Assembly: GCA_031269355.1 (NCBI GenBank)
Contig: JAISZG010000027.1
Location: forward strand, 566-64,565
From: Oscillospiraceae bacterium
GTDB taxonomy: Bacteria > Bacillota > Clostridia > Christensenellales > Aristaeellaceae
Direction of reading: 5' to 3'
Length of the DNA: 64,000 nt
The notes beneath the pieces are model-generated. The model had not been told where the DNA came from and made no database searches. It worked only from the letters and a program-made list of their open reading frames with translations. Both the position numbers and the translations under genes were made by a program. Shown here piece by piece: positions 43,768 to 54,558 of the stretch (position 1 is the stretch's first letter; the number at the start of each line of letters is the position of its first letter).

Positions 43768-44346
43768 ATGCAAACCACAGTGCAGTCAAGTTTCCATACT
43801 CCCGCCCAGGAGACCAGCTCTTTTCTGGATTTATGCGCCAGGCGGCAGAGCTGCCGCTCGTTCTCCGATCAGCCGATCGACCATAATACGCTCGTTGCCG
43901 TTGCGGAAGCCGCGCGGCTTGCGCCATCCGCGTGCAACAGCCAGCCGTGGTCGTTCGTGCTGGTTGAATCGCCTGAAAAAGTTGCGGAAGCGGCCAGGTG
44001 CGGGCAGGCGATGGGCATCAACGGATTCCTGAACGACGCGAAGGCGATACTTCTTATACTGGAGCAGCCCGCGCGCTTGATGCCGCAGATCGGCGGGCTG
44101 CTTGACAGCCAGTACTTCGCGGCGGGGGATATCGGCGGCGCGGCGCTTGCCGCGTGCCTCGCGGCCGAGGATCATGGCGTGGGCAGCTGCATAATAGGCC
44201 TATTCGACCGTCCCAAGCTGCGCGAGCTGCTCGACCTGCCGGATTGGCAGCCTATCGCGTATTATATCGCGCTTGGATATCCCAAGAATCCGGTCGTTCG
44301 CCCCAAAGCCCGCAAGGCTCTGGCGGAATTGGTGAAGTTCGTTTAA
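43768..44346 (+). CDS. Nitroreductase-family protein
   Basis: LCARRQSCRSFSDQPI...APSACNSQPW motif. AAGGAGG lies 7 nt upstream. The track ORF from 43309 overlaps mnmE and is rejected. Confidence 0.85.
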   Translation: MQTTVQSSFHTPAQETSSFLDLCARRQSCRSFSDQPIDHNTLVAVAEAARLAPSACNSQPWSFVLVESPEKVAEAARCGQAMGINGFLNDAKAILLILEQPARLMPQIGGLLDSQYFAAGDIGGAALAACLAAEDHGVGSCIIGLFDRPKLRELLDLPDWQPIAYYIALGYPKNPVVRPKARKALAELVKFV

Positions 44347-44363
44347 CAGATACCACTGTTTAT

Positions 44364-44399
44364 ACACGCCGACGCAATCGCGCCATTGCGTCGGCGTGT
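44364..44399 (+). terminator. 15-bp perfect hairpin after the nitroreductase gene
   Basis: ACACGCCGACGCAAT-cgcgcc-ATTGCGTCGGCGTGT with a weak U-tract. A second small hairpin with a T8 run lies at 44442-44461. Confidence 0.6.
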
Positions 44400-44477
44400 T
44401 CGTATCGCCATAGGCAGTATTGAGCATTTTGAATTTTCCAGAAACGCGCAGCGTTTTTTTTCGATTTTTTCCATTTA

Positions 44478-44680
44478 GGGCGTGTTCGAAAAATATCTCG
44501 AGGCTGAATGTGCTGGATTTTGATGAGGCGCAAGGAGCCATGAGGGAGGCGTAGTGGAGCTACGTCGACTGCGCGTAAACCCACCGCCGCCTGTGGCGGA
44601 TGAAGGCGGGTTGGAGCGCGCGACGCCGCGATGGATAAAAAGACAGTGCATTCAGACCGAGAGATTTTTCGAACACGCCC
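44478..44680 (+). ncRNA. Candidate structured RNA with a very long closing stem (6S-like architecture) or a MITE-like inverted-repeat element
   Basis: Arm 44478-44515 pairs with 44644-44680 (17 bp, one mismatch, 5 bp, small internal loop, 12 bp). Two G-U wobbles are valid only in the plus-strand RNA. The GC-rich interior holds several local hairpins. No credible ORF. Confidence 0.4.
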
Positions 44681-44828
44681 AAAATTTGTCAACTATATCG
44701 GCCAATTTTAGCAACATTGCGCGAAAATATTTACGCTTTTATGAATAACAAACGGTTGATATATCATAGAGTTCCTCGGAAGGTGCGAATAGGCAAATTC
44801 GCCCCCATTCGCTTGAGGAGGGATCGTC

Positions 44829-45320
44829 ATGCTGTTGACTATCACAATGTTCAAGAAAAACATCAAACAGTATCTGGCGCAGGCGACGCAGGAGGATCTG
44901 TACTTAATCAAGTACGGCAAGTGCGTCGCCAAGCTAACGAGCTGTAAGGAAGCGCCGCCCGCGCAAACCCTGGCGGTCGCCGCGCCGCCGAAGAAAAAAG
45001 CGGAGGTAAAGCCTAAGAAAAAGAAGGAACCTAAAGCCGAAAAACCCACGCCTCAAACCGCAGCCGAGATAAAACCCAAACCTGAGAAAAAGAAAAAGGA
45101 ATCGGTCAAATCAGCAAAACCCGCAGCTGCAGTAAAACCGGCGAAGGAGCCGAAAGCAAAGCCCGTTTCCGAAACGGGGTCGAAAGCAAAAGCGAAGAAG
45201 ACGCCGTTGAAACCAAAGCCCGTCGAAACAAAGGCGCCTGAAGAAAAATCCGACGGCAAGAAAACGGACGCAAAAACAACAGCAAAAAAAGAACCCAAAG
45301 CCACCAAAGCGAAAAAGTGA
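44829..45320 (+). CDS. Phd/YefM-like N-terminal domain fused to a histone-H1-like Lys/Pro/Ala-rich tail
   Basis: N-terminus TITMFKKNIKQYLAQATQEDLYLIKYGKCVAKLTS resembles Phd/YefM antitoxins. Residues 45-163 are KPK/AKK low-complexity repeats. GAGGAGG RBS. Confidence 0.7.
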   Translation: MLLTITMFKKNIKQYLAQATQEDLYLIKYGKCVAKLTSCKEAPPAQTLAVAAPPKKKAEVKPKKKKEPKAEKPTPQTAAEIKPKPEKKKKESVKSAKPAAAVKPAKEPKAKPVSETGSKAKAKKTPLKPKPVETKAPEEKSDGKKTDAKTTAKKEPKATKAKK

Positions 45321-45534
45321 TCGAATCCTCTGAAACAAAAGCGAAAGCGGCGGATGGGAATAACCGATAATCCCCACCGGCTGGGCGAAGCCCACGCAAA
45401 TTTGAATGAAGCAAAATCGGTGGAAATAAATCCGGTCAATGGGCGGCTGACCAATACTCTGTCCGCAACTTGACCGGATTTTATTAATTAAAATCCAACC
45501 GAGCGGGAATTCCACATGAACCGCGCGCCGAGAA

Positions 45535-54497: not shown

Positions 54498-54558
54498 GCG
54501 CGGGGTTTCACACCCCGCCGCCCCGCGAATTAAATGGGGCTGCGCCACATACCCGCCG
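54498..54558 (-). repeat. Copy B of the recurrent GC-rich element in the 5' leader of the GuaA-like gene
   Basis: Minus-sense GGCGGGTATGTGGCGCAGCCCCATTTAATTCGCGGGGCGGCGGGGTGTGAAACCCCGC, then AAAGGGAGGAG and ATG. Confidence 0.6.

Follow-up and report, generated by a model that had tools for sequence, protein, structure and literature searches.

The Correia elements (NEMIS) of Neisseria occur in classes of 107 and 155 bp that differ by an internal block of about 50 bp, have TA termini and are mostly intergenic, and their transcripts form a long stem-loop that is cut by RNase III (PMC2229807). In Streptococcus pneumoniae, RUP is paired with IS630-Spn1 and is present in about 100 highly conserved copies (PMC2229807). 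Target duplications in the IS5/Harbinger superfamily are 0, 2 (TA) or 3 bp long (PMC12730594). Miniature inverted-repeat transposable elements (MITEs) derived from IS5 are the bacterial counterpart of the eukaryotic PIF/Harbinger transposons with their Tourist-type MITEs.

We analyzed a 203-nt element at positions 44478–44680 of a 64,000-nt stretch of DNA (the window) from an Oscillospiraceae bacterium (assembly GCA_031269355.1, contig JAISZG010000027.1). A preliminary description had given equal weight to a 6S-like non-coding RNA and to a MITE; only the MITE half of that proposal stood, as the element has no Rfam match, is multicopy and is not syntenic. The element is very probably a MITE that carries the 17-bp ends of a small IS5-family IS and no gene. 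Such an element is ordinary selfish DNA, not a regulatory RNA of the 6S type.

Architecturally, the nearest counterpart of the family is Correia/NEMIS: both are non-coding, 100–200 bp long, bounded by long terminal inverted repeats and present in many copies, and the 160- and 203-nt classes found here parallel the 107- and 155-bp classes of Neisseria. The two families have no sequence similarity and come from different phyla (here Bacillota, Oscillospiraceae) and, unlike Correia/NEMIS, the present family has an identified autonomous IS with matching ends, a member of the IS5 family. An IHF site, promoter activity and RNase III processing are features reported for Correia/NEMIS and not for this family. 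As with RUP and IS630-Spn1, the shared terminal inverted repeats and the TA target imply mobilization in trans, and the pairing of MITE and IS would by analogy follow the same logic; the partner, however, belongs to the IS5 family rather than to IS630, and the element is twice the length of RUP, with a GC-rich core that is modular. The copy numbers of the two are comparable. Small IS5-family ISs (ISL2/IS427/IS1031-type; NF033580) have TA flanks and termini that are identical (L139) or nearly identical (P0134, P0145, L091) to those of the window element, which differs from them in having no transposase gene and only the 17-bp ends in common. Its partner places the family among MITEs derived from IS5-family elements.

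Structure of the element

The window copy is a complete member of the 203-nt size class ('A'), with boundaries set by the family alignment and the termini and with an arbitrary orientation, given here as the + strand. Its left arm (GGGCGTGTTCGAAAAATATCTCGAGGCTGAATGTGCTG, 38 nt, 44478–44515) and right arm (CAGTGCATTCAGACCGAGAGATTTTTCGAACACGCCC, 37 nt, 44644–44680) are inverted relative to each other. This long-stem element with its 38-nt arm was as the preliminary description had drawn it, down to ends that are exactly those of the mobile element. A repeat search resolved the inverted repeat into two blocks, one of 28 nt (93%) and one of 21 nt (76%). The outer part of each arm is a perfect 17-nt core, the presumed transposase-binding end: GGGCGTGTTCGAAAAAT at 44478–44494 on the + strand and its reverse complement at 44664–44680 on the – strand. 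The left-arm extension (element positions 18–38; 44495–44515) pairs with the right-arm extension (44644–44663) and is specific to this genome's family; both positions that give G-U pairs on the + strand sit in the right-arm extension. About 40 nt inside each end lies a second conserved motif, the subterminal GGATTTT tract (44515–44521) and its mirror AAAAAGAC (44637–44644), whose columns are invariant or near-invariant in the superfamily alignment (A1).

Between the arms, the element contains a 5-bp hairpin, CGTAG-TGGAG-CTACG (44550–44564, + strand), and a GC-rich palindromic block (44570–44616, + strand) that includes the hairpin CCGCC-TGT-GGCGG (44587–44599); both hairpins had been pointed out before. 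The GC-rich block is what distinguishes the 203-nt class from the 160-nt one, where CGAAT stands in its place, and all 33 genomic matches to it fall within copies of the MITE. We found no plausible open reading frame over the element, in agreement with the earlier reading, and the overlapping frames fall in sequence that is repeated about 60 times. A promoter scan likewise returned no candidate, and none had been discerned previously.

The + strand RNA is predicted to fold with a minimum free energy of –103.4 kcal/mol (z = –8.49, none of 200 shuffles as stable), including about 35 closing pairs, in keeping with the long closing stem first noticed. The – strand reaches nearly the same stability (–91.9 kcal/mol, z = –8.33). 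Therefore, the two G-U wobbles, which had been taken to argue for a plus-strand RNA, say little about strandedness and simply reflect places where the inverted repeat is imperfect. In some copies, a G-to-A change makes such a pair perfect (CAGTACATTC in contigs C17 and C93). The inverted ends produce the long stem as a side effect.

A family of near-identical copies

The organism's own genome is a 2.47-Mb draft MAG (102 contigs, 55% GC, 91%-complete, smallest contig 2.5 kb). A BLAST search of this genome, the check originally suggested for a MITE, returned 105 matches to the element, of which about 17 were full length and 16 of these were 94–100% identical to it; the window copy is 100% identical to C84:16854-17053. 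The terminus GGGCGTGTTCGAAAAAT occurs 118 times at up to one mismatch, compared to zero occurrences of the reversed control, and pairing the termini yielded 37 complete copies, 33 termini whose element is cut by a contig end and 23 ends that are solo or degraded. The homologous blocks number 86, are spread over most contigs and sum to 11.7 kb (0.47% of the genome). The near-identical copies number about 60. Contig ends lie inside a copy in 36 of 204 cases (18%), which makes the family an important source of breaks in the assembly of this MAG, with about a fifth of them due to it.

The copies fall into two main size classes of 203 and 160 nt, together with forms of 259, 213, 221, 115, 57 and 31 nt. 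These short members (31–259 nt) without coding capacity, with terminal inverted repeats and with many dispersed copies have the properties of MITEs. In pairwise comparisons, copies of either main class are on average about 94.5% identical to others of that class. Between the classes, blocks of variants are shuffled, a pattern that points to recombination among copies. The near-identity of the copies, together with the identical twin of the window copy, indicates recent activity.

The hairpin at 44550–44564 varies across the family, having a TGGAG loop in 39 copies and a flipped CTCCG loop in 14. Rare variants of its stem are compensatory (CGCAG...CTGCG), and the corresponding hairpin in the sister genus is CGGAC-TGGAT-GTCCG. 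Each loop sequence is nearly the reverse complement of the other, as would result from a flip of the hairpin. As a separate observation, the 4,039-nt contig C2, which is bounded by a MITE copy, contains long, repetitive, beta-rich open reading frames resembling phage structural parts and may be a prophage fragment.

Probable insertion at TA dinucleotides

Nearly all copies share the flank pattern YTA^GGGCG...CGCCC^TAR, where carets mark the ends of the element. We compiled statistics over the 35 copies that have both flanks. A TA dinucleotide is present on the left of 31, on the right of 27 and on both sides of 24 of these copies, compared to a genomic TA frequency of 0.051. The preliminary description had named many near-identical copies with target-site duplications as the observation that would speak against a non-coding RNA gene, and the family displays many such copies, with probable TA duplications. 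At the next base outward, a pyrimidine occupies position –3 in 31 of 35 copies (T in 18, C in 13) and a purine occupies position +3 in 30 of 35 (A in 19, G in 11). These TA flanks with variable Y and R neighbors fit a 2-bp TA duplication at a YTAR site. The flank statistics, the stop-codon cases described below and the IS relatives all argue that the TA is a duplication and not a part of the element. A 4-bp CTAG duplication was excluded because the outer bases vary independently. At the window copy, the left TA (44476–44477) is intact in the flank cattTA^GGGCG, and the expected right TA (44681–44682) reads AA, a degenerate form one substitution away; the sequences on either side of the target TA are TTTTTCCATT (left) and AAATTTGTC (right).

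Across all copies, the flanks are 71% AT, compared to 45% for the genome. The complete copies are all located between genes or at gene ends and stop codons, in a genome that is about 86% coding according to a simple codon-usage gene caller. TA is rare in this genome of 55% GC except in AT-rich intergenic DNA and in TAA and TAG stop codons, and consequently copies pile up there. Six junctions form a TAG stop codon, and five of these end long open reading frames (276–465 aa) that we took as real genes. Each junction TAG consists of the duplicated TA and the element's first G, with the original TAA or TAG on the far side of the element. This layout is the one predicted for insertion into the TA of a stop codon, whereby the protein is left intact: the element's terminal G rebuilds an in-frame TAG and the host gene is undamaged. 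Regeneration of the stop codon shows how a TA-targeting element can occupy gene ends without cost.

We also considered orientation bias as a mark of selection at the RNA level. Complete copies were distributed 19 of 29 and 20 of 29 with respect to the adjacent gene (not significant), and when truncated copies were included, 50 of 87 were co-oriented (P = 0.20), so that neither test revealed a significant bias. The 259-nt copies were examined as a potential internal empty site. Their insert is a different, 57-nt repeat that entered without a duplication and, therefore, these copies are silent on the MITE's own duplication.

Related elements and a probable IS5-family partner

Among 300 genomes of the same taxonomic family, related elements were found in only one other genus (G060, G118 and G197), where they have the ends GGGCCTGTTCGAAAAAT, the same YTA flanks and a 160-nt class. 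A scan of one genome per species located the terminus in two further genomes, Neglectibacter sp. X58 and a Ruminiclostridium MAG. In both, the termini number about 30 and the MITEs are about 160 nt long with TA flanks, together with variants of 113–118, 178 and 203–204 nt. Further members of 148 and 160 nt are present on metagenome contigs. Across genera, only the terminal 15–17 nt and the subterminal tract about 40 nt inside the ends (GGATTTTT / AAAAAGAC) are conserved. In an alignment of representatives, the 38-nt stem was confined to the family of this genome, with no conservation in sister families. Conservation confined to the termini and the subterminal tracts is the pattern expected when a protein recognizes transposon ends, and not when an RNA fold is maintained. 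The whole superfamily can be recognized by a simple marker, the terminus GGGCNTGTTYGAAAAAT flanked by TA.

A metagenome scan with the window copy's exact terminus identified an IS in which both 17-bp ends are identical to those of the MITE (L139:14-980, on contig Ga0209629_10360139). The IS is 967 bp long and apparently intact, is flanked by cTA^...^TAa and shares nothing with the MITE except these ends; its flank (40% GC) comes from an organism other than that of the window. The transposase is encoded in two overlapping frames that are joined at an A5G5 run (CAAAAAGGGGGC), which is likely a programmed –1 frameshift or transcriptional slippage site. The –1 fusion scores 285 bits against the NCBIfam profile transpos_IS5_3 (NF033580), covering profile positions 2–258 of 258. 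The closest homologs of this transposase (P0121–P0145) are single open reading frames, unlike the split frames of L139.

The Ruminiclostridium MAG, which is also full of MITEs of about 160 nt, contains an 841-bp degenerate element with TA flanks and ends of the same kind (L091/L116). Its stop-interrupted gene encodes DUF4096 and DDE_Tnp_1 domains and scores 269 bits on transpos_IS5_3 (cut-off 110). The Pfam matches of the partner transposase are to DUF4096 (6.5e-28) and DDE_Tnp_1 (6.5e-14). Intact homologs are common, as single-frame proteins of about 252 aa with 60–70% identity, located in ISs of about 850 bp that end in TA^GGCCTTGTTTGAAAAA or TA^GGGCTTGTTTGAAAAA, with the general pattern TA^GG(G)C(C/T)TGTTTGAAAAA.

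The 91%-complete draft of the element's own genome contains no intact transposase of the transpos_IS5_3 or IS630 type. With a smallest contig of 2.5 kb, a collapsed IS of about 1 kb could have been dropped from the draft. At about positions 335–440 of contig C12, we found a decayed, 32-residue C-terminal fragment of a transpos_IS5_3-type transposase (IKLKQWRGIVTRYAKK...). The start of the contig falls within an IS3-like orfA (helix-turn-helix, – strand), which the decayed IS5-type fragment follows, and C12:1-440 consists of remnants of larger ISs at an assembly break.

Several other candidates for the partner were rejected. The genes beside solo termini and on short contigs of this genome were housekeeping genes only, and none of the other large repeats (C56/C102, C45/C85 and others) proved to be an IS with the GGGCGTGTTCGAAAAAT terminus. 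In Neglectibacter, a terminus followed by a ribosome binding site and an ATG (L100) is a solo end beside an L-lactate dehydrogenase gene, and the IS5_3-type genes there are without the terminus.

A proposed mechanism for mobilization and spread

We propose that a transposase of the transpos_IS5_3 type (DUF4096 and DDE_Tnp_1 domains, about 260 aa), supplied in trans, would bind both GGGCGTGTTCGAAAAAT ends, probably aided by the conserved subterminal T/A tracts. The transposase would then excise the element, which would insert at a YTAR site where the central TA becomes duplicated. The family amplified recently, and its diversity arose through internal deletion or insertion (forms of 160, 203 and 259 nt) and through recombination among copies. 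Where RNA polymerase reads through a copy, the transcript would form a long, double-stranded hairpin that RNase III could cut.

We assign a low probability, about that of an outside chance, to the idea that the family is more than a passive passenger, namely that it is designed for spread without harming genes, that its hairpins are functional and that some copies shape transcripts. The terminal G that rebuilds TAG stop codons, the hairpin pairing kept across two genera despite changes of sequence and a flipped loop, and the modular, hairpin-capturing core would fit such a design. The conserved hairpins could then be functional parts, such as a transposition enhancer, a host-factor site or an RNase site. 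By analogy with Correia elements, some copies, that in the window included, could shape the 3′ ends or the stability of neighboring transcripts.

Alternative explanations

According to the 6S-like reading, the element would be a stand-alone regulatory RNA gene on the + strand with a functional stem-bubble-stem layout. The very stable fold, the length of about 200 nt and the GC-rich interior with local hairpins agree with such a gene, and the two G-U pairs favor the + strand by about 11 kcal/mol, although the likeness to 6S RNA (RF00013) consists only of the length and of a closing stem with a looser interior. The Rfam search that had been recommended to settle the matter gave nothing relevant: positions 43800–45400 returned only noise at E ≤ 10, the whole window returned nothing at the gathering thresholds and no copy of the element matches RF00013. 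The best match to that covariance model in this genome lies at another locus, C19:35839-36016 on the – strand (40 bits, gathering threshold 46.4, E = 1.2e-6), where the candidate spans model positions 5–182 and abuts the contig end. A 6S gene is also hard to reconcile with some 60 copies that lie in both orientations relative to genes, with the absence of the element from the relatives' syntenic gap, with the lack of a promoter in the scan and with sister families that conserve the 17-nt ends and not the long stem. We consider a 6S-like or other stand-alone RNA gene exceedingly improbable.

Two other readings accept the element as a MITE. One assigns its mobilization to an IS630/Tc1-mariner-type transposase, which would make it Stowaway- or RUP-like. 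The TA duplication at a YTAR/CTAG-like target is a hallmark of IS630, RUP and IS630-Spn1 provide a precedent, and DDE_3 genes are present in two sister-genus MAGs (G060 and G197); however, these genes are orthologous and degenerate with no matching terminus nearby, the element's own genome is without DDE_3 (PF13358) or mariner (PF01359) genes, and every IS with identical or near-identical termini encodes an IS5-family transposase. An IS630-type source is thus very unlikely. The other reading, to which we give equally little credence, is that the MITE has been domesticated as a transcript-level signal for neighboring genes, whether as an RNase III site, as a terminator or attenuator, or as a promoter donor. 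Correia elements provide known examples of such action, the window copy lies between a nitroreductase stop codon (131 nt away) and the open reading frame at 44829 (148 nt away), and the pairing of the internal hairpin survives sequence change both in this genome and in the sister genus. The copies nevertheless show no orientation bias and no consistent T-run after the stem, two terminator-like hairpins already lie upstream of the window copy, and the high identity among copies suggests recent spread rather than long retention at fixed sites. The preferred reading remains a MITE with the ends of a small IS5-family IS.

The terminus sequence was not found in the searchable literature, and the family therefore seems undescribed. 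With it, a MITE can be matched to an IS5-family IS in the gut Oscillospirales, whose mobile DNA has been little catalogued. Its value is mostly one of annotation and it represents no new kind of biology; the copies will keep surfacing as "structured RNA" candidates, and the family should therefore be masked before searches for non-coding RNAs.

Surroundings of the window copy and other repeats

The region downstream of the nitroreductase gene (44364–44468, + strand) contains the two hairpins already noted upstream of the element, which we located at 44364–44399 and 44440–44458; the latter resembles a terminator, with a T run after it. The MITE landed in this AT-rich terminator region, which lies outside the element itself. 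On the other side, the protein of the small, lysine-rich open reading frame (44829–45320) is 163 aa long and combines a short Phd/YefM-like segment at its N-terminus with a long tail rich in lysine, proline and alanine; a good GGAGG site precedes the gene and mnmG comes after it. Exact-protein look-ups of both neighboring genes returned no match, the nearest homolog being 71% identical, and the organism is found only once in public data.

Three of the nearest relatives, whose nitroreductases are 66–71% identical, retain the upstream synteny (YchF-MnmE-nitroreductase). The element is absent from their syntenic gap of 400–460 nt, which is occupied by a probable proS T-box leader without similarity to it, contrary to a single, conserved, syntenic non-coding RNA. 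With this leader and proS at the position of the gene at 44829–45320, the gene order here has undergone rearrangement. The gaps upstream of proS (L060:4577-5036, L062:4577-4978 and L063:4577-4986) show the T-box motif GGGTGGTACCGCG together with a hairpin that resembles a terminator, and are probable proline T-box leaders.

Element positions 107–133 (CGCCGCCTGTGGCGGATGAAGGCGG) have matches of 21–27 nt at 91–100% identity (L031–L038, in genomes G016, G011, G014, G007 and G012) in other genera of the taxonomic family that are without the MITE. They may represent a shared small hairpin repeat or chance similarity in GC-rich DNA.

The 57-nt insert of the 259-nt copies is a GC-rich, double-hairpin repeat (CAGGGTGCGGGACGAAGTCCCGCTTCGTTCGGGGCGGCGGGGCAGAGCCCCGCGTTA) that forms a dispersed family of its own, with 52 matches outside MITEs and seven inside. 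Examples within MITEs are C87:8237-8495, C46:1-255 and C93:102677-102935 of the same genome (G000), and free examples are C43:49404-49460 and C13:2193-2245. Its insertions into MITE copies occupy two positions that mirror each other, are in opposite orientations and left no duplication. The repeat has the motif CCCCGCCGCCCCG in common with a REP-like repeat at 54498–54558 of the window.
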